A stretch of 43,870 bases of DNA from Escherichia phage AnnaReinhart_Bas75. The position numbers and the translations under genes were made by a program. Each line of letters begins with the position of its first letter. Position 1 is the first letter of the stretch. Location: sequence record PQ850596.1. One strand, given 5' to 3'. Below, piece by piece: positions 4,908 to 41,398 of the stretch. A model generated the notes under the pieces. The model did not search any database, was not told where the DNA came from, and saw only the letters and a program-made list of their open reading frames with translations.

Positions 4908-5111
4908 TCAACGGAATCTTGTGTTTAAATCCTGCTCGTGGACGACCCTCAGAACAGTGTCATAATCCCCGTATCTTCCAGGTTCAAATATATCTAATGC
5001 CTTGTAAGCAGACATTGCGTCAGGGAAAACCTGCAGAACCTTTTTAACCCGGCACAAGTCACCGTCGAACTCTTCATCGAACTCTTGAACTACTTCGCAA
5101 ATTGCATACAT
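4908..5111 (-). CDS. hypothetical small acidic protein (67 aa), single-gene minus-strand insert
   Basis: ORF with AGGAGG RBS 8 nt before ATG, own early-type promoter (5139..5167) and shared terminator; opposite orientation to flanking structural genes. Confidence 0.6.
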   Translation of the reverse strand: MYAICEVVQEFDEEFDGDLCRVKKVLQVFPDAMSAYKALDIFEPGRYGDYDTVLRVVHEQDLNTRFR

Positions 5112-5138
5112 TTTTCACCTCCTGTTTAAGTTAACTGA

Positions 5139-5167
5139 ATAGTACCCTATTATATTGGGGTGTGCAA
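5139..5167 (-). promoter_or_regulatory. sigma70-like promoter TTGCAC-N17-TACTAT containing palindrome AATAG-N4-CTATT
   Basis: Read on minus strand: TTGCAC accccaatataataggg TACTAT, then AGGAGG RBS and ATG of 4908..5111. Near-identical to sites at 14262, 37025 and 38441. Confidence 0.6.
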
Positions 5168-5486: not shown

Positions 5487-5873
5487 ATGAATCTTAAAGC
5501 AACTGTCGTAGCAGGAGCATGTTTCATCATCCTGGTTTACGCACACGGCATCTACCAGTATCGCAGCGGATGGAACGAAGGCCGGGCTAATCTCGTTTCG
5601 CAGCAACAGCAGAAAGCACAGGCTGAGTTAGCGAAGAAAACACAACGGCAGCAGCAGGATGAATCGAAGGCCGCCGCCGCTGACAACGAAGGCAAGACGA
5701 AATCAGAGGTGATTACCCGTGAAGTCGTTAAGTACATTAAAACGCCTGGTCGCAGTGTGTGCGCTTTTGACCCTGAGCGCGTGCAGCTCAAGTCCCGCGC
5801 CGTCGCAAACGCCAACTCCATCCCCGGATACGACGATGATGCAGCCGCCGTGCAAACTGGCACCGCCAAGTAG
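5487..5873 (+). CDS. Rz: i-spanin (Rz-like inner membrane spanin)
   Basis: 128 aa; N-terminal transmembrane segment (VVAGACFIILVYAHGIY), then Gln/Ala/Lys-rich predicted coiled coil; contains an embedded out-of-frame lipoprotein ORF, the hallmark Rz/Rz1 arrangement. Confidence 0.6.
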   Translation: MNLKATVVAGACFIILVYAHGIYQYRSGWNEGRANLVSQQQQKAQAELAKKTQRQQQDESKAAAADNEGKTKSEVITREVVKYIKTPGRSVCAFDPERVQLKSRAVANANSIPGYDDDAAAVQTGTAK

Positions 5874-11288: not shown

Positions 11289-12455
11289 ATGGCTACAACT
11301 CCTTTTAAGGGCGCGAATACCGCGCAATTCTATGTGGCGGAAACTACCCCTGGCGTAACACCGACTAACCCGGTATGGTCGCCGTTGCGTAACACGGGCG
11401 GCGTTCCCGCTGTAACCCGCGATGCACTGACTTCCAACGAACTGGACGGCAGCCGTGAAACTACATCCATCCGAACCGGTAACAAGCAGGTTAGCGGGGA
11501 GTATGCCATCGAACTTAGCTCTCGTAGCCAGGATGATTTCCTTGCGGGAGCGATGACTTCTACGTGGCAAGCTGGGGTAGAGATTACTGGCGCCGGAATT
11601 ACGGTCGCCCCAGCAGGTAAAACATTCACCCGCGCTGCCGGTAGCTTCATTACTGACGGTGTAGAAGTTGGCGACCTTATTGCGTTCACCGACTTAACCG
11701 GCGACAACGCAAAACCGTTTATCGTGACCGCGGTTTCCGCTCTGGTAGTTACGGGCGCAGGTATTCAACACACGCTGACAGCAGAGACAGTAACCACTGA
11801 CGCAAAAACTGGCGACAAGCTGGAAACCGGTAACGCGTGTAAGACGTTCTCCATCCTGACGTGGTTCAAGGGCCAGTGTGGTAACCCGGACGCGTACATG
11901 CTGACCAAAGGTGTGGAAATCTCTGGCTTTACCGTAGAGCAGGCGGTTAACGCCATGGTCACCGGCAGCTTCCCGTTCATCGGCCTGAGTCAGGAGATTC
12001 TTACCGCGCCGCCGTCTGGCTCTGATTTCTCTCAGGTTACGTTCACCGATGAGCCGTTCTCGTCGGTAGATGTGTCGGTGTTCGATGGCTCCACGCCGTT
12101 GCGTTGCGATACTCTCACCATCACCAACGACAACGGAGCTTCCGCGCAGTTCGAACTCGGTAACAGTAGCGTGGCGTTCGTCGAACGTGGACGCGCAGCT
12201 AACACATTCTCTATCTCTGGCAAGCTGTACGACATGGCGATGATTCAGAAGTTTATCAACGAGCAGCAGGTAGAGATTAACTCTATTCTGGCAGGGGTAA
12301 ACGGGGCTATGTCTTTCAGTTTGAAACGTGCAGAGCTTACGGCGGTTACACCTGAGATTGGTGGGCCTGAGTCAATCACTCAGTCCATTGAAGGCCAGGC
12401 TACCGGCAATCAGTACCAGTCGTCTATCGTAATTCAACGTATCACCTACGCATAA
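11289..12455 (+). CDS. major tail protein
   Basis: 389 aa, Thr/Gly/Ala-rich; AAGAGG RBS; followed by strong terminator; located upstream of chaperone-tape measure genes. Confidence 0.6.
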   Translation: MATTPFKGANTAQFYVAETTPGVTPTNPVWSPLRNTGGVPAVTRDALTSNELDGSRETTSIRTGNKQVSGEYAIELSSRSQDDFLAGAMTSTWQAGVEITGAGITVAPAGKTFTRAAGSFITDGVEVGDLIAFTDLTGDNAKPFIVTAVSALVVTGAGIQHTLTAETVTTDAKTGDKLETGNACKTFSILTWFKGQCGNPDAYMLTKGVEISGFTVEQAVNAMVTGSFPFIGLSQEILTAPPSGSDFSQVTFTDEPFSSVDVSVFDGSTPLRCDTLTITNDNGASAQFELGNSSVAFVERGRAANTFSISGKLYDMAMIQKFINEQQVEINSILAGVNGAMSFSLKRAELTAVTPEIGGPESITQSIEGQATGNQYQSSIVIQRITYA

Positions 12456-12460
12456 AACTA

Positions 12461-12483
12461 AGGCCCCTTTCGGGGCCTTTTTC
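12461..12483. terminator. bidirectional terminator AGGCCCC-tttc-GGGGCCT with flanking A and T runs
   Basis: Between convergent major tail gene (+) and minus-strand cassette; same stem sequence as terminators at 4882 and 24518. Confidence 0.7.
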
Positions 12484-12714
12484 TCACTCATCAATATTAC
12501 TTCGATACTCCCGTAACTTCTCCAGACTTTCAATTGCTTCTGCTAAGTCGGTTCCGGTGTCCTTATGCCCGCGAAGACCCATGCACAATAACTTCTTCAA
12601 TGCGTGCTGTAGTGCGGGGTCACGGATGTCGAAGGCACGGAGAACATCGTAAACGTCTACGGTCATAGTGCTGCCGTGAGTGTTTGTCATTGTTCGGTTG
12701 TATTTTGAAGTCAT
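12484..12714 (-). CDS. hypothetical protein (76 aa), last gene of minus-strand insert
   Basis: Start overlaps stop of phosphoesterase gene; no recognisable motif. Confidence 0.5.
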   Translation of the reverse strand: MTSKYNRTMTNTHGSTMTVDVYDVLRAFDIRDPALQHALKKLLCMGLRGHKDTGTDLAEAIESLEKLREYRSNIDE

Positions 12715-13841
12715 CCCAGCATCTCCGGTGAAATAGTTAAACGTGCGACCTCGCCATATTCGGCGCTATAAGTAATTACATTTGCACTACGGCCTGACAT
12801 CCACCCGCCGCGGGAGGCATAGGCGTCTTTAGCCGCTAAGGTGCGGTGTTGCTCAACAATCATGTTACGGCTTTCTACAATCTTCTGGTGGTGCAGGTGG
12901 CCTACGTGGGCGTAGCTATAGACACTCTCACCGAACGCTTTGCGGAATTTGGCAATCATAACCGGTTCGATAGCATCGAATCGCGCCTTATGCCCGTGGT
13001 GAAAGAACAACGTCGTTTTTCCGTGTTGCACCATCTTGTAAACATCCGGCGACGTATCGACAATCACTCGGCTGTCGTTCGAATATAAAACTGTGAACAT
13101 TTCAGCCAGCCATACAGAGCCTACAGGGTCATGGTTCCCCTGTACGATAAGCAAGCGAACATTTTTATGTTTAACCAGTGCCATATCTACAACACGGCGT
13201 ACCATACGAATCATGTAGCGGACGAGTTTCTGGTAGCGAGTGTCTGCGTCCAACACGTGACGCGACTCAGGTGTAACGGCATCCAGACTATCGAAGTGCG
13301 CGAAATCACCCAGCAGGTTAATAACTCCTGTTCCTGCATCCGGTGCTTTCTGAAACGCCGCGTCGAACCAACGAGAGAACAGGTCTTCCGCAATCTTTAT
13401 ATCCCAGTCGTCGCCGCTCTCGTCGGCCCAGGCAAGCATACCGAGATGGAAATCAGATACCGTGTAAAGATTGAGTAGCTTGTCGTCGCGTTTGGCTCGA
13501 GTCGCTTTAGCCGGCGCAACTGGCGTAATCTCTGACTTCATGCCTTCAATCACGGCTTTCATCAACTCGACCTGACGTTCAGCGTCGGTGTCTGTCTTAA
13601 CCCATTGCAACTTAGTATTGCCGAACTCGTCTACCAGAGACGACGTCCCTTTAATCTTGTAGCCGTCTGGGACAAGGTGGCTAACGTCACGCCCGTGGCC
13701 TACACCTTTCTTAGCCAGCTTCGCTTTACGGATACGAATAACTCGGTCTGAGATGCCGTATTTACGGGCGATGTCTACATTCTTCATCCCGGCGTTCAAT
13801 TCTTCCTGTAACTGTTCGTCGGTTATTTTCTTCTGGGCCAT
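12711..13841 (-). CDS. HTH domain fused to calcineurin-like metallophosphoesterase
   Basis: 376 aa; N-terminal HTH-like segment (KNVDIARKYGISDRVIRIRKAKL); C-terminal phosphoesterase motifs in order: SDFHLG (D-x-H), GDFAHFD (GD-x-x-D), GNHD, then His-rich HHGH and GHLHH. Confidence 0.7.
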   Translation of the reverse strand: MAQKKITDEQLQEELNAGMKNVDIARKYGISDRVIRIRKAKLAKKGVGHGRDVSHLVPDGYKIKGTSSLVDEFGNTKLQWVKTDTDAERQVELMKAVIEGMKSEITPVAPAKATRAKRDDKLLNLYTVSDFHLGMLAWADESGDDWDIKIAEDLFSRWFDAAFQKAPDAGTGVINLLGDFAHFDSLDAVTPESRHVLDADTRYQKLVRYMIRMVRRVVDMALVKHKNVRLLIVQGNHDPVGSVWLAEMFTVLYSNDSRVIVDTSPDVYKMVQHGKTTLFFHHGHKARFDAIEPVMIAKFRKAFGESVYSYAHVGHLHHQKIVESRNMIVEQHRTLAAKDAYASRGGWMSGRSANVITYSAEYGEVARLTISPEMLG

Positions 13842-13906
13842 GCTTACTTCCTCGTGTTTAGGATTTGTCCTATTTAACCACAGTGGATTCCTTTAAATAA
13901 AGGCAA

Positions 13907-14233
13907 CTATTTACTTTCTGCGCCTATCGCCCACCCTGTCATTACCATTTGCAGACGGGTGGCTGTCAGTAGGCTATAGAAAGCATCTCCGTTTTTCTCT
14001 ACCGAACGTATCACTGTGTAGGTTACGGCCTGCGGGGGTAGGCCCGATTTACCAACCTCCACGGCGGCCTCACACTCGCGAACTGTAGAGTCCTTGAACG
14101 CCTTTACAATAGTAGGGTCGGCTTTATCAAGCACACCAGAAGTCATAAGAACAGATTCACTAAATACCTGTTCGCACGGGGCTCCAAAAGTAGCAAAAGA
14201 CATAAAACCCAGAGCTAGTACTAATTTACGCAT
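13907..14233 (-). CDS. secreted/periplasmic small protein (108 aa) with N-terminal signal peptide
   Basis: MRKLVLALGFMSFATFGA signal-peptide-like N-terminus; GAGGA RBS; first gene downstream of early-type promoter 14262..14290. Confidence 0.55.
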   Translation of the reverse strand: MRKLVLALGFMSFATFGAPCEQVFSESVLMTSGVLDKADPTIVKAFKDSTVRECEAAVEVGKSGLPPQAVTYTVIRSVEKNGDAFYSLLTATRLQMVMTGWAIGAESK

Positions 14234-14261
14234 AATTATTTCCTCAGTAAGTTACATGTGA

Positions 14262-14290
14262 ATAGTACCCTATTATATTGGGGTGTGCAA
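14262..14290 (-). promoter_or_regulatory. sigma70-like promoter TTGCAC-N17-TACTAT with AATAG-N4-CTATT palindrome
   Basis: Identical 29-bp core to 5139..5167; drives minus-strand cassette 14233..12484. Confidence 0.6.
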
Positions 14291-14397
14291 GTAGTGTGCT
14301 AGAATAAGTTTGCGCCTAGTGTCGCACACGAAAAGCGGGTGGTTCCCGCCTGGCGCATTAACCATAACCAGTAACCTCTTAACCAAAGGACTAAAGA

Positions 14398-22332: not shown

Positions 22333-24513
22333 ATGTCAAGCGGATGCGGTGACGTTTTAAGCCTGGTGGATTTACAAACCGCCAAGAAACACCAGATTTT
22401 CGAGGCCGAGGTTATCACCGGTAAAGCTGGCGGTGTAGCTACGGGTGCTGATATTGATTACGCAACTAATCAGGTTACGGGACAGACACAGAAGACGTTG
22501 CCAGCCGTGTTGCGTGACGCCGGGTTCAGACCTGCGCCATTCACATTCGAAACAGGTGGGACTTTGGGCGTTAACGACGCTGACCTGGCGGTGTTGTGGC
22601 CAGGGCCATCAGGCGACGGCAACTATTATGCATGGAAAGGTGCCCTGCCAAAAACCATCCCGGCATCCTCAACGCCAGCATCTACGGGCGGAGTAGGCCA
22701 GACCGCATGGGTTGCCGTTAGTGAAGCTGCATTGCGCCGTGATTTGGCCCTAAGCACTGGCGCAGGGTTAGTTGGGACAACATCCGGCAGGACCGTACAG
22801 GCAGAGTTTGACTACCGCAAGACTCAAGCAGCAAAAACAGAGATAAACATACTTGACTACCTTCCAGCTAACGTGATCGCAGCTCTAAACGATGTTAACG
22901 CGTCAAAAGCACTAGGAAGCGTAAGGACATACATTGAGCAGGCTTTAGCGGCAGCAACTAGCGAGAATATCGGTACTGGGGTTACTTTACGTTTCCCGGC
23001 TGGGTTCTTTTGGCTTGATTCTACTCTTAACCTTCCAAAAAGGACGCGTATTGTTGGGGTCTACCCAGAAACATACTTTATGGCTCTCCCTGACTTTACT
23101 GGCACTAACGTAATTGCCGGTTCCACAGGACCCGCTATAGTCGCTATTGATAACACAGGACAAGACCCGTTTTATATTGAAGGTTTCCAGATAAACGCAG
23201 ATGGTTCCCAGCCGAATGTGGTTGGGCTGCACATTGGCGGCTGCCGTAATTCCGTCGTCCGTCGGATATCTGTATCTGGAACCTTCGATGCTGCTGTTGT
23301 TATCCACCCTAAAAACGCAACATCTGGAGACGTGGAGAACCTGGAATTAAGCCACGTATGGACATTAGGCGGTGGGCTTGTGCTCAGGACTAATACAGAT
23401 ATCGACCGTGGAAATTTAACAGGCCTGTCATTCCGGGATTGTATGTTTTTCAGCACAATCGGCAACAACCCTTCATGGGCGACATCTGGCAACCCTAGTA
23501 TCAGGTTCTCCTGCCATGTAGACCGACAGATTTTTGCATGTACATTCGACCGTGTAGGATGGGCGAGTCGCGCAACATACGCCATCTATTCAGAAAGCCT
23601 AGCCGGAAATAGTGCATCTGATGTCAAGGGCTTCCGCGATATTCATTTTACAGATTTCCACGGAGAAGCCCACAATGCCGATGGGTCATTAACAGCGGAC
23701 TGTACTTTTGCCCTTCTTGCGAATATGCGTAACAGTACATTTACTAATATCCAACGCTCCGGCGCTGTGACTCGCGGCGGCATTATCATGGATGGGTGCG
23801 AATACGTAACATTCAACTCAGTATCATTTGCGGACCCTAATATCACAACAGGAACAACGACACCTTGTTGCGTATACCAGAACTCCACCAACAGATTTAA
23901 TAGATTTATTAACTGTGACTTAACAGATGCAACCGGGAGCATGTTTGATTTAGCCGGTTGGACCGTGTCATCCAGTGTAATGTATTATTTTAAGGGTCTT
24001 TTTTGGGACGATAGTGGGACAAGTACCTGGGAGAGTGAACAAATGTCTTCAAAACCATTTGTTCTTTTTAAAAGGTCTGCGCTTAACGCCAATAACGGTT
24101 CTGCTTACCCGCAGGAATCAGGCGTAACTATGGCTACTTCTGGTGATAATCTACAGGTTACCTTTGCACGAGACGCTACCACAAAAACATTCACAATACC
24201 AATCACAACTACAAACGCTGTTTTCAACAACCACGACCGTGTTTATGTCCTATTCCGTCATCAGTTCACTAGCTATGGCACTGGCACAGTTGTAAAAATA
24301 GGGCTTGGAACATCCTATGTGACTATCTCACCTCAGACAGGGAACGATTATTTTGCGGCTATTAGCTTAGCACGTAGCCAGGCTACTAGTTTTAATATAC
24401 AAGTAACCTATAGCGGGGCCTCAGCTGACTGCGGAATATTAATTAGGGATTTAATTATTTCTGACAGGATGCCGTGGGTGCCGAACTTCACCAAAGCATT
24501 ACTTTGCGATTAA
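22333..24513 (+). CDS. tailspike / receptor-binding protein with probable beta-helix polysaccharide depolymerase domain
   Basis: 726 aa; N-terminal segment typical of tail-fibre anchor domains; central/C-terminal region shows repetitive Gly/Asn/Ser/Thr-rich pattern of beta-helix enzymes; last structural gene; GC drops in the 3' part. Confidence 0.55.
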   Translation: MSSGCGDVLSLVDLQTAKKHQIFEAEVITGKAGGVATGADIDYATNQVTGQTQKTLPAVLRDAGFRPAPFTFETGGTLGVNDADLAVLWPGPSGDGNYYAWKGALPKTIPASSTPASTGGVGQTAWVAVSEAALRRDLALSTGAGLVGTTSGRTVQAEFDYRKTQAAKTEINILDYLPANVIAALNDVNASKALGSVRTYIEQALAAATSENIGTGVTLRFPAGFFWLDSTLNLPKRTRIVGVYPETYFMALPDFTGTNVIAGSTGPAIVAIDNTGQDPFYIEGFQINADGSQPNVVGLHIGGCRNSVVRRISVSGTFDAAVVIHPKNATSGDVENLELSHVWTLGGGLVLRTNTDIDRGNLTGLSFRDCMFFSTIGNNPSWATSGNPSIRFSCHVDRQIFACTFDRVGWASRATYAIYSESLAGNSASDVKGFRDIHFTDFHGEAHNADGSLTADCTFALLANMRNSTFTNIQRSGAVTRGGIIMDGCEYVTFNSVSFADPNITTGTTTPCCVYQNSTNRFNRFINCDLTDATGSMFDLAGWTVSSSVMYYFKGLFWDDSGTSTWESEQMSSKPFVLFKRSALNANNGSAYPQESGVTMATSGDNLQVTFARDATTKTFTIPITTTNAVFNNHDRVYVLFRHQFTSYGTGTVVKIGLGTSYVTISPQTGNDYFAAISLARSQATSFNIQVTYSGASADCGILIRDLIISDRMPWVPNFTKALLCD

Positions 24514-24517
24514 AACT

Positions 24518-24540
24518 AAGGCCCCAAACGGGGCCTTTTC
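24518..24540. terminator. bidirectional terminator AAGGCCCC-aaac-GGGGCCTT
   Basis: Between convergent tailspike (+) and minus-strand replication-module genes; same stem as 4882 and 12461. Confidence 0.7.
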
Positions 24541-27260: not shown

Positions 27261-27579
27261 TTCTCAATTCCTTATATTGTTGGTGTATGTGCTTACTATA
27301 ATAGTCTGCTATTAGGGTGTCAATCTGTTTTATCGAACCAACGACAAAAACATTTGCACCACGTTTACGCATCCGCTCGTGCTCTCGTAACTGGTGCGGG
27401 TCTGGCTTCGTGTTTTCGTCTTTCTTAACCTCGACGAACCAGATGATGCCACCAGGGAGAATTACCAGCAGGTCGGGGGCGCCGGAGCGCCCCTCATAAG
27501 ACAGCTTACGAACGAGGCCACCAATGGCCTCGAATCGCTCTTTTGCGTATTTCTGCACGCGCCCCTCAGGCGTACTCAT
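27226..27579 (-). CDS. VRR-NUC domain nuclease
   Basis: 117 aa; PD-(D/E)xK-type core (GAPDLLVIL ... FVEVKK). Confidence 0.65.
   Translation of the reverse strand: MSTPEGRVQKYAKERFEAIGGLVRKLSYEGRSGAPDLLVILPGGIIWFVEVKKDENTKPDPHQLREHERMRKRGANVFVVGSIKQIDTLIADYYSKHIHQQYKELRNETRIRPQTST
27295..27323 (-). promoter_or_regulatory. sigma70 promoter TTGACA-N17-TATAGT with AATAG-N4-CTATT palindrome in spacer
   Basis: Minus strand reads TTGACA ccctaatagcagactat TATAGT; embedded in 3' coding region of VRR-NUC gene, upstream of 27069..27260. Confidence 0.55.
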
Positions 27580-27660: not shown

Positions 27661-27791
27661 TCATTCCAGCACCCACAGATAAATTGCGATGAACATGCCC
27701 AATATGGCAACCATCATGCCGTATTGACCCTCGTGACAGTAGACACCTGCGGCAAATCCCGCCAGTACCGCGATAATCAGTTTACTTAGCA
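27661..27791 (-). CDS. small membrane protein (43 aa; unlisted)
   Basis: ATG at 27791 overlapping polymerase stop; hydrophobic sequence LIIAVLAGFAAGV...MMVAILGMFIAIYLWVL. Confidence 0.35.
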
Positions 27792-29962
27792 TAGCGTTTT
27801 AACTCCTGACCTTCCGCTACAAGAGGGAACCCCTCCGCCCATTCTGGTAATTCGCACATCAATCGCTCAAGCTCTGCGACATTGTATTCCGGCGTATCTG
27901 GAGTTTCGCAGATAATCTCATCGTGGACATGAAGTACAATTGGATAACCGTTTGCTTCTACGTTCAGCAGCGCGTTGGCCAGCAAATCACGGCACAACGC
28001 CTGAGTGCAGTTTTCCACCAGTTTACCAGAGTAGGTGTACTGGAAGCCCCACTGCCGGGTTAACTGGTTTTCGCCCTGGTACTTGATGCGCACGTTAGTA
28101 GACACCTTTCCATCTTCGTCTGTCTCTTTCGACACACTTAATCCGACGCCCGGGTATGACATAACGCGACCCGACGGCAACGTCATGCGCAACCACCAGC
28201 CCGCGACTTTGTCGCCGTTGTTGTCTGTCTCTATGTTACGCGAAAACTTAACGCCTCGCGGTCCTGCGGTGAACTCTTTACCTGGATTGCGGATAGCGGC
28301 CATAGCTGCGTCTTCAATATCTCGCCAGAAAGCTACTGTTTCAGGGTGTGACTCTCGCCACATACGCTTGATAGCGTCACAGGTACGCCACACTTTCTTA
28401 TCAAGAATATACGATGGTCGGTCATCCTTCTCCCCGGGTCGCGGCGGTCGCTTGGCTTCCTGAATACGTGCCCATTCATAGCCGCGTGCAGTAGCCGCCC
28501 AGATGTGGTCCGGGAAAGTACCGTCCATTGTTTTTGACATATCAACAAGGTCAAGTCCGAGGTTCTTAGCAAACTGAACGAAAGCGCCAACACCACCAGC
28601 GTAGCCGAGGCCAAGCTCGCAGGCTTTACCAATCTGGCGCAAGTCTTTGCGTTCCTTCTTAATGTAATCCGGCTCCATGCCGAACATCTTACCCGCGGTT
28701 ACACAGTAAATGTCCAGCCCGGCGCGGAACGTATCTAGCGCGGTTTCTTCGCCTGCCAGCCACGCAAGCCCCCGACCTTCAACGTTAGAGTAATCGGCGA
28801 CGACAAACTTTTTTCCGGCTTCCGGGATAATGCAGCTACGCACCGTCGATGCCGTTAGCTTGGCTACGTCGAAACGGCGATGCGCACGACCCTTAAGTAG
28901 CGCTGAAATGCCCTTATCCAGTTCATCATCGTGATAGTACCCGCGCGCCAGGTTCTGTGGTTGGAAGCCTTTACCTGCGAACCGTAACGTACGCTTGGCC
29001 CCACCGTACTGGATGCAACCACGGCGGCGGTCGTCCGACGAGCGACCCAACAGCAGCGGGTTATATTTCGTTGACGCAGTGGACGCGGCCCCGAGGCGCA
29101 TTTCTATAATTGTGCGGGCGTCGTCGGGTAAATCCTCATCCGCCAGCAGGTCGTTAAGCGTTGACTTCTGTGCATTGTGTATGCGGTGCGCGGGCGCAAG
29201 TTCACGCAGAATCGGCAGGAAGTCTTTACCAGTAAGCGAGCCGCCGTATTTACGTTGAGCTTCTTCCTGTAACTGTGCCTTGTGCTTCTCTACGGCTTCA
29301 ATAGCGGCTTCCGCCAGTGCGACGTCAACCTTAAATCCGCGGTCGTTGATTAACTGGTCAAGCTCCAGTACACGGTCTTCGAACTCGGAGTTACCCCAAC
29401 GCGGCAGCTTATGGAAGACTTCACGCATCGCAGTGATGTCGCTCACGGCGTACCTGATGAACATCGCCCACTCGTCAGGGTGAGTTTCTGCGGTGTAGCG
29501 GCGGATTTTGTAGTTCTTCGGCGTCGGTTTAGAGAAACGCTTAATCAGAGCCTTGCCGCGTTTATCTTTCGCGTTGTCTGCAGACACGCCCAGCACTTCG
29601 CACAGCGCATCGAGTGACCCCGGCAGCGCGTGACGAAACGCCCAAATCATCGTATCAATGGCGTTGCTTACGGGAATATCAAAGCCCCAGCAGTGTTTCA
29701 TGATGAGCCTGTCGAACATTGAGCCGTTGTGCCACACCATCTTAATACGACTGTTCGGCTTAACCAGGCGGCGCAGTGCGCGGTGCAAATCACCCGGCAT
29801 GTCGCTTCCGTCGGTGCAATCCCATACCCGCACAGGCTCGTCGTCAAAAGCATATGTGCAGATAAGCACTTCGGTAGTCGGGTGTTCGGCGTAAGCGTAG
29901 GAGCCGACTTTCTTTAAATCGGCTTCGGAGAATGTTTCAAAGTCCAGGTATAAGTAGCTCAT
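27782..29962 (-). CDS. DNA polymerase, family A, with 3'-5' exonuclease domain
   Basis: 726 aa from ATG 29962 (AAGGA RBS); Exo I motif LDFETFS, motif B-like RQIGKACELGLGYAGG, motif C VLHVHDEI. Confidence 0.85.
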   Translation of the reverse strand: MSYLYLDFETFSEADLKKVGSYAYAEHPTTEVLICTYAFDDEPVRVWDCTDGSDMPGDLHRALRRLVKPNSRIKMVWHNGSMFDRLIMKHCWGFDIPVSNAIDTMIWAFRHALPGSLDALCEVLGVSADNAKDKRGKALIKRFSKPTPKNYKIRRYTAETHPDEWAMFIRYAVSDITAMREVFHKLPRWGNSEFEDRVLELDQLINDRGFKVDVALAEAAIEAVEKHKAQLQEEAQRKYGGSLTGKDFLPILRELAPAHRIHNAQKSTLNDLLADEDLPDDARTIIEMRLGAASTASTKYNPLLLGRSSDDRRRGCIQYGGAKRTLRFAGKGFQPQNLARGYYHDDELDKGISALLKGRAHRRFDVAKLTASTVRSCIIPEAGKKFVVADYSNVEGRGLAWLAGEETALDTFRAGLDIYCVTAGKMFGMEPDYIKKERKDLRQIGKACELGLGYAGGVGAFVQFAKNLGLDLVDMSKTMDGTFPDHIWAATARGYEWARIQEAKRPPRPGEKDDRPSYILDKKVWRTCDAIKRMWRESHPETVAFWRDIEDAAMAAIRNPGKEFTAGPRGVKFSRNIETDNNGDKVAGWWLRMTLPSGRVMSYPGVGLSVSKETDEDGKVSTNVRIKYQGENQLTRQWGFQYTYSGKLVENCTQALCRDLLANALLNVEANGYPIVLHVHDEIICETPDTPEYNVAELERLMCELPEWAEGFPLVAEGQELKRYAK

Positions 29963-30800: not shown

Positions 30801-30859
30801 CTTAATTTCTCGCTTTTAAGTTTCGTTTACTCCGGGAAGCTGCCCGGTCAGTGATTAGA

Positions 30860-30888
30860 ACTATAATAGCTAACTATTCAGGTGTCAA
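30860..30888 (-). promoter_or_regulatory. sigma70 promoter TTGACA-N17-TATAGT with AATAG-N4-CTATT palindrome
   Basis: Minus strand reads TTGACA cctgaatagttagctat TATAGT; upstream of 30174..30800. Confidence 0.6.
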
Positions 30889-33317: not shown

Positions 33318-33408
33318 TTCTTGCGGAGCGCCGAAAATTGCTCGAAAACCTTTAGCTATGGCCCCAGTGATTGTGTTCTTATCTGCCCCTCTCGTTTGGT
33401 ATGGGCTA

Positions 33409-33437
33409 ACTATAATAGCGAACTATTCACATGTCAA
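33409..33437 (-). promoter_or_regulatory. sigma70 promoter TTGACA-N17-TATAGT with AATAG-N4-CTATT palindrome
   Basis: Minus strand reads TTGACA tgtgaatagttcgctat TATAGT; followed by conserved AAACGAGAGG leader. Confidence 0.6.
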
Positions 33438-37024: not shown

Positions 37025-37053
37025 TTGCACACCCCAATATAATAGGATACTAT
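37025..37053 (+). promoter_or_regulatory. sigma70-like promoter TTGCAC-N17-TACTAT with AATAG-N4-CTATT palindrome
   Basis: Near-identical to 5139 and 14262 copies; followed by CGAAACGAGA leader, AGAGGAG RBS and ATG 37088. Confidence 0.6.
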
Positions 37054-37087
37054 TCACTTATCGAAACGAGACAGAGGAGTGGTGGTT

Positions 37088-38440: not shown

Positions 38441-38469
38441 TTGCACACTAAGATAGAATAGGCTACTAT
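38441..38469 (+). promoter_or_regulatory. sigma70-like promoter TTGCAC-N17-TACTAT with AATAG-N4-CTATT palindrome
   Basis: TTGCAC actaagatagaataggc TACTAT; followed by ACAAACGAGAGGAG leader and ATG 38501. Confidence 0.6.
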
Positions 38470-38500: not shown

Positions 38501-38650
38501 ATGGTTACTTTGATGGTTATGGAATTCGAAAACAGCGTAGCAACTTACCGCGAGATGACTATGGCGCAGGCGTATCACCTGGCCTCAAACGGCAACTTCT
38601 ACAAGGCGCAAATCATCAATGAGTTCGGGGTAATTGACTATGAATTTTAA
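38501..38650 (+). CDS. hypothetical early protein (49 aa; unlisted)
   Basis: GAGGAGAGACGGAAG RBS region then ATG; overlaps start of next gene. Confidence 0.4.
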   Translation: MVTLMVMEFENSVATYREMTMAQAYHLASNGNFYKAQIINEFGVIDYEF

Positions 38651-38931: not shown

Positions 38932-39618
38932 ATGAGTAACAAAAACGAAGTATTCGAGTACCTGATTGACCAACTACGTCAGCAGGTAAATAACAACCAG
39001 TGCGAAGACCTGGCGCATGAGGTGCAGTCACTTAAGAATCAGTTACGTGATGCGTCGGCGCTGGTGGCGGAGTTGCAGGAAGACAACATTAAGAAATCTG
39101 AGCACATATCGCACCTGTCGGAACTGGTGGACGAGTTGATGGGGACTATAACGTTAATGAACGGGGACGTTGAGGCTTACAAAGTTCTACGCAAATGTGC
39201 GTGCGCCTATGGGCAATCCGGTTGTCGCGACGACGCCGCTCATATCGAGAAATCGTGGATTGAGCACGCTGGCGCCGCATGCCCTGTACCGGACGATACT
39301 GTTGTTGATATTAAATTCCGAAACGGCAAAATGGAAAGTAATACCAAAGCGCTATGGTGGAGTTGGGGCCTAAATGGCGGACCATACGAAATTGTTGCGT
39401 ACCGTGTTGCCGCGCAACAATGCAATAAGGACGATACTCGTGAGTGCGCGCATGATTGGGTGCTGGACGAAAAAGGGGACTACTTCATTTGCGCTAAATT
39501 CGGTAAGCAAGAAGCTGACTTAATTGATTGCCGACACACTAATACCGTCGGTTTGCGTAAGGGCTTTGCGCCGGGGTTTACTAAAAAGTGTCTGGATTGC
39601 GGGGCTAAACTGAAATGA
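38932..39618 (+). CDS. hypothetical protein with N-terminal coiled coil and C-terminal Cys-rich domain
   Basis: 228 aa from ATG 38932 (GGGAGGAGAGACAGAAG RBS); about 12 Cys in C-terminal half (CACAYGQSGC ... CPVPD ... CLDCG). Confidence 0.55.
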   Translation: MSNKNEVFEYLIDQLRQQVNNNQCEDLAHEVQSLKNQLRDASALVAELQEDNIKKSEHISHLSELVDELMGTITLMNGDVEAYKVLRKCACAYGQSGCRDDAAHIEKSWIEHAGAACPVPDDTVVDIKFRNGKMESNTKALWWSWGLNGGPYEIVAYRVAAQQCNKDDTRECAHDWVLDEKGDYFICAKFGKQEADLIDCRHTNTVGLRKGFAPGFTKKCLDCGAKLK

Positions 39619-39818
39619 CCAGCATCCTCTTTATCTGGGTACTGTCCGCAGGCCAGATGCAACTGGCGGCAGCAGAAACGTTTTATTCGATGGAGGCGTG
39701 CCAGTCAGCGGCACGCGCCGCAGAGAACGCGCACTTCCTGTTTCAGGGCGACAAGCCAAACGATTCAGAGGTACGCGCTATCTGCTCACCTAAGCGACTT
39801 GGTAAACAGGAGAAATAA
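39615..39818 (+). CDS. small secreted protein (67 aa) with signal peptide
   Basis: N-terminus MTSILFIWVLSAGQMQLAAA resembles a Sec signal peptide; two Cys in mature part. Confidence 0.45.
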   Translation: MTSILFIWVLSAGQMQLAAAETFYSMEACQSAARAAENAHFLFQGDKPNDSEVRAICSPKRLGKQEK

Positions 39819-40361: not shown

Positions 40362-40670
40362 TTGGATAAATTTACTGAAACAGTGACTGGGTGGCTTCTG
40401 GCAGCCGCACTAGCTGGTGGGGTAATCGGACTACGACAACATAAGTCCGCTATTTCCGGCCCTATCGACGGCTTCTGCTTTATTGCAACTGGCTTCACTT
40501 GCGCCGTATTTGGCGCACCTCTCGCAGCTCAATGGTTTGGAATCACGGGCGACCGTGAAATCGCAGGCCTGGGCTTCATTATCGCTATTCTCTGGATGCC
40601 TATCTATTCCCGTCTGTCCGGTATCGTCGCCGGAGAATACATCGCACGTCGAGGAGGCCCGGATGAATGA
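40362..40670 (+). CDS. holin (three predicted transmembrane segments)
   Basis: 102 aa; three hydrophobic stretches and charged C-terminus; CTGGAGGA RBS; immediately upstream of endolysin. Confidence 0.6.
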   Translation: MDKFTETVTGWLLAAALAGGVIGLRQHKSAISGPIDGFCFIATGFTCAVFGAPLAAQWFGITGDREIAGLGFIIAILWMPIYSRLSGIVAGEYIARRGGPDE

Positions 40671-40935
40671 GTTATTCTGGTTCTGCGGTATGCTGGCAAT
40701 CGGAGGCACATCGCTGTTTAATGTGTATCATCCCAGCGTTGACGACGGGCTATTTGGCCGGGTGCTCTATATCCTGACTGCTATTGTCTGCGCCGCAGGA
40801 TGTATCCACCTGTTACAGGGCAGCATGTCTCCGACGCTGCCTGAGACATTAATCACATTAGTTGCGCTGCGCCAGATTCGTCAGGCGTGGCTGTCATACG
40901 GAGGACATAAGCGTGTCTCGAAATATTTCAGATAA
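40663..40935 (+). CDS. second lysis-associated membrane protein (two TMDs; holin or antiholin candidate)
   Basis: 90 aa from ATG 40663 (GGAGG RBS); two hydrophobic segments; overlaps both neighbours. Confidence 0.45.
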   Translation: MNELFWFCGMLAIGGTSLFNVYHPSVDDGLFGRVLYILTAIVCAAGCIHLLQGSMSPTLPETLITLVALRQIRQAWLSYGGHKRVSKYFR

Positions 40936-41398
40936 TGGATTGCATTTCACCGCTGCGTTCGAGGGATTCCGCGGAACTGCATACCGCGCTACGCCGAACG
41001 AGAAGTACCTGACTATCGGGTACGGGCACTATGGGCCGGACGTAACCCCGGGTAAGACCATCACACCGGGGCAAGGCCTCCTGTTACTGAATCGTGATAT
41101 GGCTAAGGCCGTAGCTGCGGTTGACGCAGCAGCACACCATTCATTGACACAGGCACAGTTCGATGCAGTGTGCGACCTGGTATACAACGCAGGTGCTGGT
41201 GTGATTGCAGCTGCTACCGGCACAGGAAAGGCGCTGCGTTCTGGTGACATCGCGACACTGCGGGCTAAACTGGCGCTGTTTATCAACCAGAACGGCAAAC
41301 CGTTACTTGGTCTGCGCCGCCGTACTGCCGGGCGTCTTGCACTGTTTGACGGCAAGCCGTGGCAGGAGGCGGAGGCCATTGGGAGGGCTGTTAAATGA
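40913..41398 (+). CDS. endolysin, phage lysozyme (GH24 / T4-lysozyme-like)
   Basis: 161 aa from GTG 40913 (GGAGGA RBS); N-terminal catalytic region FEGFRGTAYRATPNEKYLTIGYGH resembles the E...D...T lysozyme core. Confidence 0.75.
   Translation: MSRNISDNGLHFTAAFEGFRGTAYRATPNEKYLTIGYGHYGPDVTPGKTITPGQGLLLLNRDMAKAVAAVDAAAHHSLTQAQFDAVCDLVYNAGAGVIAAATGTGKALRSGDIATLRAKLALFINQNGKPLLGLRRRTAGRLALFDGKPWQEAEAIGRAVK

Follow-up and report, generated by a model that had tools for sequence, protein, structure and literature searches.

The 43.9-kb stretch of DNA analysed here (43,870 nucleotides (nt), Escherichia phage AnnaReinhart_Bas75, PQ850596.1; the window in what follows) is a complete or near-complete genome of a Kagunavirus (subfamily Guernseyvirinae) coliphage. 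Two small open reading frames (ORFs) in it, ORF1 (13907..14233) and ORF2 (39615..39818), had been singled out in an original prediction made from the letters of the DNA, which placed both downstream of early-type promoters, gave both a classical hydrophobic signal sequence, and proposed them as candidates for superinfection exclusion or envelope modification. Both ORFs are present, ORF1 on the minus strand (which the prediction left unstated) and ORF2 on the plus strand. ORF1 encodes a 108-amino-acid (aa) precursor of a predicted secreted helical protein, which belongs to phrog_14165 and is a homologue of Jersey gp25. ORF2 encodes a 67-aa near-core Guernseyvirinae protein of phrog_3766.

The region around ORF1 is 99.5–99.6% identical to the BASEL phages Bas72, Bas73 and Bas76, and that around ORF2 is 96% identical to Bas76. 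In these near-identical phages both products are labelled 'hypothetical protein' (Bas76_0023 for ORF1, Bas76_0066 for ORF2). The BASEL relatives are virulent siphoviruses whose receptors are O-antigen or capsule glycans (PMC11990801). Neither ORF was matched in Pfam, NCBIfam or PADLOC, and both fall only into function-unknown families in PHROGs. For ORF1, Pfam returned no match even at E ≤ 1, and hence none to Imm_superinfect (PF14373).

The N-terminus of ORF1 and its family

The N-terminus of ORF1 was confirmed as a canonical predicted signal peptide of the Sec type, comprising residues 1–17 (MRKLVLALGFMSFATFG/A, encoded by 14183..14233 on the minus strand; a slash marks the site of signal peptidase I (SPase I), here set by alignment to homologues). 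The n-region MRK, with a charge of +2, is followed by a 14-residue hydrophobic core, LVLALGFMSFATFG, and then by APCEQ. The uncharged stretch amounts to 17 residues, and the predicted site, T-F-G/A-P-C, has small residues at –1 and –3 (T-F-G/A) and no Pro at +1. In the homologues the same alignment column reads SFA/H, ALA/S, AKA/T, AIA/G, VAA/E, ASA/M, AGA/T and ADA/A. It is by this alignment that cleavage of ORF1 is placed after G17, the exact position being uncertain.

ORF1 passes a strict rule test of the n-, h- and c-regions, which replaced an earlier loose heuristic that had flagged 45 of 315 ORFs. Nine E. coli signal peptides served as controls, of which eight pass. Among 181 mechanically called ORFs of at least 60 aa only six pass, and the real genes among these are ORF1 and two spanins; shuffled versions of the ORF1 sequence pass in 1.8% of cases. 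In Bas76, with 85 annotated proteins, the ORF1 ortholog is the sole passer other than holins, spanins and tiny membrane peptides.

A profile search of 1.8 billion representative proteins returned only ten relatives of ORF1. Six distant full-length relatives (27–47% identity) start with textbook signal peptides, and the N-termini of distant homologues read MKHLIIALSFFSLPALA/SPCEQ, MKHVFIALALTTAALSFGAKA/TTCDQ, MKNILSLSAAIGLFISSSAIA/GPVCER, MKRLAKLAMLVAVLGLAAPVAA/EEKFPCEQ and MNKKVISIIIVAASFSASA/MSSVVCER. In the alignment of 13 family members, which reaches down to 27% identity, every sequence carries an n-region charge of +1 to +3, an uncharged stretch of 12–23 residues and an AXA-type site, which lies 1–5 residues ahead of the first invariant Cys; more divergent members from IMG/VR have the same n/h/c layout. 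Across the 13 aligned members the frequency of the commonest residue is 0.46 in the signal region and 0.62 in the mature part; a targeting peptide that is cut off would be expected to show such a difference.

The hydrophobic signal sequence proposed for ORF1 is thus borne out by the rule test, its controls and conservation across the 13-member family, and the protein is, as judged from its sequence, very probably exported. Two other modes of export were considered and rejected. Processing as a lipoprotein by signal peptidase II would need a lipobox, [LVI][ASTVI][GAS]C, which is lacking (the sequence is G-A-P-C), and the Cys lies 2–6 residues past the SPase I site in the homologues; a substrate of the twin-arginine translocation pathway would carry a twin-arginine motif, S/T-R-R-x-F-L-K, which is absent from the n-region MRK. 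It is also improbable that the sequence acts as an uncleaved signal anchor that keeps ORF1 tethered to the inner membrane: T-F-G/A-P, with Gly at –1 and Pro at +2, is a weaker site than AXA, but the column is occupied by textbook sites in the homologues, whose h-region, at 12–17 residues, is below a typical membrane span in most members.

The mature protein was computed to have 91 aa, a mass of 9.7 kDa and an isoelectric point of 5.0, and its two Cys residues, C20 and C54, are invariant across the family. The AlphaFold model is all-helical, with a mean predicted local distance difference test (pLDDT) score of 77 and poor confidence only at residues 1–15. A sequence-profile search of the PDB with ORF1 returned nothing, and Foldseek found nothing for the model in the PDB at E ≤ 0.001. 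In BFVD the model was matched by proteins of 105–132 aa from Salmonella phage SE1Kor, Serratia phage Tsm2, Pectobacterium phage Arno162 and Escherichia phage phiEB49 (gp19), with Foldseek probabilities of 0.94–1.0 and template-modelling (TM) values of 0.5–0.55. Going by these models, the ORF1 family may extend past Guernseyvirinae.

Occupants of the slot beside the tail chaperone gene

ORF1 is the first gene of a three-gene leftward cassette that diverges from the tail-chaperone gene. Distant homologues keep this place, as the first gene opposite the tail strand, between the tail tube and the chaperone/tape-measure genes; in the metagenomic locus L007 the homologue is the sole insert between tail tube and chaperone genes. 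Phage K1G has, at the place of ORF1 and behind an identical promoter, a gene for a 63-aa protein with two transmembrane spans. This protein scores 48.6 bits (cut-off 27.9; E = 7.5e-13) with the Pfam model PF14373 Imm_superinfect, and it also matches phrog_1039, labelled 'immunity to superinfection'. Imm of phage T4 blocks DNA entry and represents an experimentally defined exclusion family.

DNA comparison delimits a swap segment without similarity to K1G at 13874..14257 (minus strand), which corresponds to ORF1 plus its leader. Homology between the window and K1G resumes on both sides of it, at the promoter and at the downstream gene. ORF1 has matches in 98 phage records and the Imm-type gene in 368, with a union of 453 as counted with a fusion query of ORF1 and Imm. 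The counts are additive within Escherichia phages (29 + 73 = 102) and Kagunavirus (3 + 8 = 11), and nearly so in Salmonella phages (327 versus 326). The overall union falls short by 13, mostly through the loss, with the longer query, of weak Imm hits from unrelated large phages. The two genes are adjacent in no record, and no Imm gene is found anywhere in the window or in Bas76. Two Jersey-like contigs, whose chaperone genes are 96% identical, differ in that one carries ORF1 and the other Imm. ORF1 and the Imm gene are mutually exclusive across about 450 genomes, and the sharp swap, the additive counts and the lack of co-occurrence together identify them as alternative cargo of one slot, which an Imm-type protein fills in about 350 related phages. 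A published comparison lists the Imm gene among the differences of K1 phage P from phages G and L (ORF1 carriers) and does not go on to any conclusion on ORF1 (PMC5582158).

For a census of the slot, 80 IMG/VR loci were fetched with the chaperone gene as anchor and the first divergent gene was classed; gene calling was simple and the classes were partly assigned by eye. The Imm family occupies the slot in 31 loci and the ORF1 family in 21, and divergent secreted relatives (MKTLLAVLLGSSMALSFSAEA/VSC...) in a further 4. A family with one N-terminal membrane span accounts for 7 loci, lipoproteins with an LSGC or LAGC lipobox for 3 (L052; L054, MKLLIIAAAVALSGC...; L058, MKRLIAVVAFCLAGC...), and another two-span protein and another secreted protein for one each. 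The remaining 12 are unclassified; in about ten of them the divergent gene is either not evident or cytosolic-looking, and two have too little upstream sequence. Contigs L039–L046 (MTQFIIAILAMGLNLAVLFFVV...), L059 and L084 also belong to those with other unrelated small envelope proteins in the slot. Apart from Imm and ORF1, the envelope-protein families found there are all uncharacterised. Secreted or membrane-bound proteins make up about a tenth of the Bas76 proteome; set against this background, the enrichment of envelope proteins at the slot is strong.

The slot might instead be a recombination hot spot open to any small accessory gene, so that the envelope location of its cargo would tell nothing of a common function. 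Sharp swap edges that coincide with the promoter on one side and the downstream gene on the other, both conserved, would suit such a site, as would the few loci with cytosolic-looking or unclear ORFs (L035, L037 and others) and the unrelated enzymes that also occur in the cassette. However, at least six unrelated first-position families are secreted, lipid-anchored or membrane proteins where the proteome would give about one in ten, the chance of six of seven families being so is about 1e-5 by our own rough estimate, and the commonest occupant comes from an exclusion family defined experimentally in T4. We therefore consider a slot indifferent to function improbable.

Transcription signals, neighbouring genes and ORF2

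A sigma-70-type promoter directed towards ORF1, TTGCAC-17-TACTAT (14262..14290, minus strand), lies 29 nt ahead of the ORF1 ATG, with a Shine–Dalgarno sequence, GAGGA (14241..14245, minus strand), 7 nt ahead of it. The –10 element is overlapped by a palindrome, AATAGTACCCTATT (14261..14274), which is common to six other promoter-like sites. The same promoter type with the palindrome recurs at 38441..38469 on the plus strand, 32 nt ahead of the ORF at 38501..38650, and a further copy at 5139..5167 on the minus strand lies 28 nt ahead of the minus-strand ORF 4908..5111. A repeat search returned the two minus-strand copies as a perfect 32-nt repeat (5136..5167 and 14259..14290). ORF2 is the fourth gene after the promoter at 38441..38469, three genes and 1.15 kb downstream, and the ORF immediately ahead of it ends in a stop codon that overlaps the ORF2 ATG. 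Ahead of the slot gene, K1G, K1H and Jersey and the metagenomic loci L003 and L007 all retain a TTGCA –35 element, 17-nt spacing and a TAnnAT –10 element. The ORF at 4908..5111, which lies inside the head module behind the perfect copy of the ORF1 promoter repeat, encodes an acidic protein of 67 aa and seems to represent a second small insert, again leftward, within the structural operon.

The palindrome AATAGnnnnCTATT occurs 12 times in the window with one mismatch allowed, against 0.9 occurrences expected. Near-consensus sigma-70 promoters, TTGACA-17-TATAGT, precede the minus-strand replication genes, and each has the palindrome in its spacer; the repeat search places them at 27294–27323, 30859–30888, 33408–33437 and 37035–37064 (minus strand), the last being weaker. 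At 5138, 14261 and 38457 the palindrome overlaps the –10 element of the TTGCAC-17-TACTAT promoters. This distribution suggests that the palindrome is likely a shared candidate operator for some regulator.

Two other assignments were rejected. The best promoter for ORF1 in a scan, TTCACA-16-AATAAT (14262..14235), would start transcription inside the ORF, past the Shine–Dalgarno sequence. The 32-nt repeat could also be read as a rightward promoter homologous to those of the replication genes; the leftward TTGCAC-17-TACTAT reading was preferred because it is common to all three copies, is followed in each by a Shine–Dalgarno sequence and an ATG at 28–32 nt, and is conserved in distant loci. The promoter may nevertheless act in both directions.

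Early expression of ORF1 and ORF2 by the host RNA polymerase is plausible, since both genes lie behind one promoter type that shares its likely operator with the promoters of the replication genes. A literature search found no transcriptome of any Guernseyvirinae phage. As regards the early-type promoters originally placed upstream of both genes, the shared promoter type was found where expected, and the word 'early' is a deduction from its sequence.

The second gene of the leftward cassette (12711..13841, minus strand) encodes a 376-aa metallophosphoesterase, also described as a 'DNA repair exonuclease'. It has weak N-terminal matches to helix-turn-helix families (GerE and a late transcriptional activator PHROG), and its product could act as a regulator besides being an enzyme. 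The third gene (12484..12714, minus strand) encodes a function-unknown protein of 76 aa. The cassette ends at a strong intrinsic terminator (12460..12479, minus strand) whose 8-bp GC-rich stem leads into a run of T. A GC-rich hairpin, TAAAACTAAGGCCCC....GGGGCCTTTT, is found in two copies of 90% identity, at 12453–12481 and 24511–24539, where convergent units meet; both are likely bidirectional terminators. In having its own promoter and terminator, in its location between the tail tube and chaperone genes, and in the exchange of its cargo among relatives, the cassette has the features of a moron. The GC content of the swap segment is 0.458, compared with 0.507 for the genome.

A conserved intergenic stretch (14309–14373, plus strand), which separates the ORF1 promoter from the tail chaperone gene, matches the Rfam int-alpA RNA motif (RF02996). 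Its score of 35.8 bits in a local search is exactly the gathering score, that in K1G is 31.8 bits, and the match was not reported in the gathering search of the whole window; it would fall in the leader of the chaperone/tape-measure transcript. A small ORF annotated in this region in relatives (Bas76_0024; 14273..14386 of the window, minus strand) is unlikely to be a gene.

For ORF2, a classical signal peptide is not supported. With matches in 474 phage records, the gene comes close to being core in Guernseyvirinae; a profile search returned 98 relatives, a spread of 21 of which was compared. ORF2 starts with MTS, which contains no twin-arginine motif, and a positive n-region is absent in 19 of the 21 homologues. 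The run free of charged or strongly polar residues (ILFIWVLSAG) covers only 10–13 residues, long enough for an h-region, and L5, F6, W8 and G13 within the N-terminus are invariant or nearly so. Conservation of the N-terminus (0.68) is like that of the remainder (0.72), unlike in signal peptides and unlike in ORF1. ORF2 fails the strict rule test even when the charge rule is waived. The family comparison and the rule test thus speak against the signal sequence that had been claimed for it, and its hydrophobic N-terminus probably belongs to the protein's structure instead of being a cleaved signal. The structure model, with a pLDDT of 55, was uninformative, and a match to titin in the PDB profile search was taken as chance.

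ORF2 could still be exported, although we regard this as unlikely: an atypical signal without charge might be cleaved after AAA20, or the N-terminus might serve as an anchor and leave the C-terminal part in the periplasm. The first 20 residues of the window's ORF2 are uncharged and end in AAA/E, the nearly invariant C29 and C57 would suit a periplasmic disulfide, and an upstream start in some homologues puts MRVKE before the hydrophobic run. However, the run is too short for a membrane span, and the AAA/E column reads LEG/I, PPT/T, LET/V, RPV/T and others in the homologues, residues that would be unacceptable to signal peptidase; conservation is lacking at –1 and –3, where T, V, L, P and R occur. 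The missing n-region charge, the evenly conserved N-terminus and the failed rule test point the same way.

Elsewhere in the window, an Rz-like spanin pair (5487–5873 and 5719/5839–5982, plus strand) lies among the head genes; the holin and endolysin genes (40362..41398) are about 35 kb away. The i-spanin has an N-terminal anchor, and the o-spanin, which overlaps it, has the lipobox LTLSAC. Inside the replication operon, the ORF at 27661–27792 (minus strand) encodes a very hydrophobic 43-aa product with two predicted membrane spans, and Bas76 has a second tiny hydrophobic ORF, of 50 aa, near its counterpart.

Proposed role of ORF1

We propose that ORF1 would be transcribed by the host RNA polymerase from its own promoter (14290..14262) and that the Sec signal peptide (residues 1–17) would carry the 108-aa precursor across the inner membrane. 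SPase I would remove the peptide, freeing an acidic all-helical protein of about 91 aa into the periplasm, where C20 and C54 would probably join in one disulfide. There it would stop genome delivery by later-arriving related phages, the candidate targets being an ejected tail, tip or tape-measure component, or a host envelope factor needed by the incoming phage. That ORF1 is a periplasmic superinfection-exclusion protein has, in our estimation, about an even chance of being correct. This reading is suggested by the Imm family being the commonest alternative in the slot, and also by the presence there of lipoproteins, the class of Llp and Cor, and by the HK97 gp15 moron, which likewise adjoins a tail chaperone gene. 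An exclusion or envelope role had originally been suggested for both ORFs; ORF1 gains comparative support for it as an allelic alternative to an Imm gene, whereas nothing links ORF2 to exclusion.

Llp of phage T5 and Cor of T1/phi80 are lipoproteins that block re-infection via the FhuA receptor. They resemble ORF1 in being early or accessory phage proteins exported to the envelope, and lipoproteins occupy the same slot in the relatives L052, L054 and L058. ORF1, however, has no lipobox, and its phages use glycan receptors. The T4 Imm family is linked to ORF1 by position, an Imm-type gene lying in exactly its slot behind the same promoter, but Imm is an inner-membrane protein of about 60 aa with two transmembrane spans, whereas ORF1 is predicted to be soluble and secreted.

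In format, the closest known protein is T4 Spackle (gp61.3), an early periplasmic helical bundle of 75 aa with one disulfide and a cleaved signal peptide, which partners with an Imm-type membrane protein in T4 biology (PMC7677548). ORF1, with about 91 aa in its mature form, a predicted helical fold and two invariant Cys, has the same format but neither sequence nor fold similarity. T4 has both Spackle and Imm, whereas ORF1 and Imm replace one another here, and Spackle targets the gp5 tail lysozyme, whereas no lysozyme domain was detected in the tail proteins of this phage. In its location ORF1 resembles HK97 gp15, the first described moron, an exclusion protein encoded between the tail chaperone and tape-measure genes, whose effect depends on features of the incoming tail (PMC3594210). 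Both are small envelope proteins with their own transcription signals adjoining the tail assembly chaperone gene, but gp15 is a membrane protein of the YebO family from a prophage, whereas ORF1 is predicted to be secreted, is unrelated in sequence and belongs to a virulent phage.

Several points weigh against exclusion by a periplasmic ORF1 protein. No homology ties ORF1 to exclusion, and the argument is one of guilt by position; the Imm-family proteins of these phages are themselves annotated only by homology to T4 Imm. ORF1 has no sequence or fold likeness to Spackle or to any solved structure, and the structural neighbours of its model in BFVD are all uncharacterised phage proteins. Pfam detected no lysozyme or other enzymatic domain in the tail proteins (tape measure and distal tail proteins), so the target of ORF1 probably differs from that of Spackle. 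Cleavage after G17 would leave a Pro at +2. The promoter is a weak match to the consensus (7/12), and its partly palindromic motif could also, or instead, drive the rightward tail genes.

Doubtful, yet deserving of consideration, is a different envelope role for an exported ORF1, for example in lysis timing (T4 RI is a periplasmic antiholin with this function), in protection against lysis from without, in inhibition of a host periplasmic or outer-membrane factor, or in interference with the display of O-antigen or capsule that would spare progeny from adsorbing to debris. The same evidence for a signal peptide and a periplasmic location fits such roles, as does the lack of a fold match to known exclusion proteins, and masking of the receptor would be useful to phages that bind surface glycans (PMC11990801). 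A lysis role sits poorly with the distance of ORF1 from the holin and endolysin genes (26 kb) and from the spanins (8 kb), and a glycan target with the retention of the family across phages with differing receptors (K1 capsule, O16 and Salmonella O-antigens). Moreover, what replaces ORF1 is an Imm-family protein, not a lysis or glycan-modifying gene.

Returning to superinfection exclusion, we tentatively suggest, with rather less than even confidence, that ORF1 founds a novel-fold family of periplasmic exclusion proteins in glycan-targeting siphoviruses, interchangeable with Imm, and that the site is a dedicated exclusion slot. Superinfection exclusion sets which phages share a host and bears on the composition of phage cocktails, and phages of the Kagunavirus and Jerseyvirus groups have been put forward widely for use in therapy and biocontrol. 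To our knowledge, the mechanism is understood for only a handful of superinfection-exclusion proteins. The analysis offers a predicted secreted protein, apparently of novel fold, that alternates with an Imm-type protein at one defined slot, and it removes ORF2 from the likely exported proteins. The slot is present in BASEL reference phages, which are grown on K-12 with restored O-antigen, and the proposal is therefore directly testable. A simple rule for new candidates follows, namely the first gene divergent from the tail chaperone gene. If the proposal is true, the slot could be mined for new exclusion mechanisms, at least six unrelated envelope families having been tried there, and cross-exclusion between phages of the ORF1 type and those of the Imm type would define competition groups in Guernseyvirinae.

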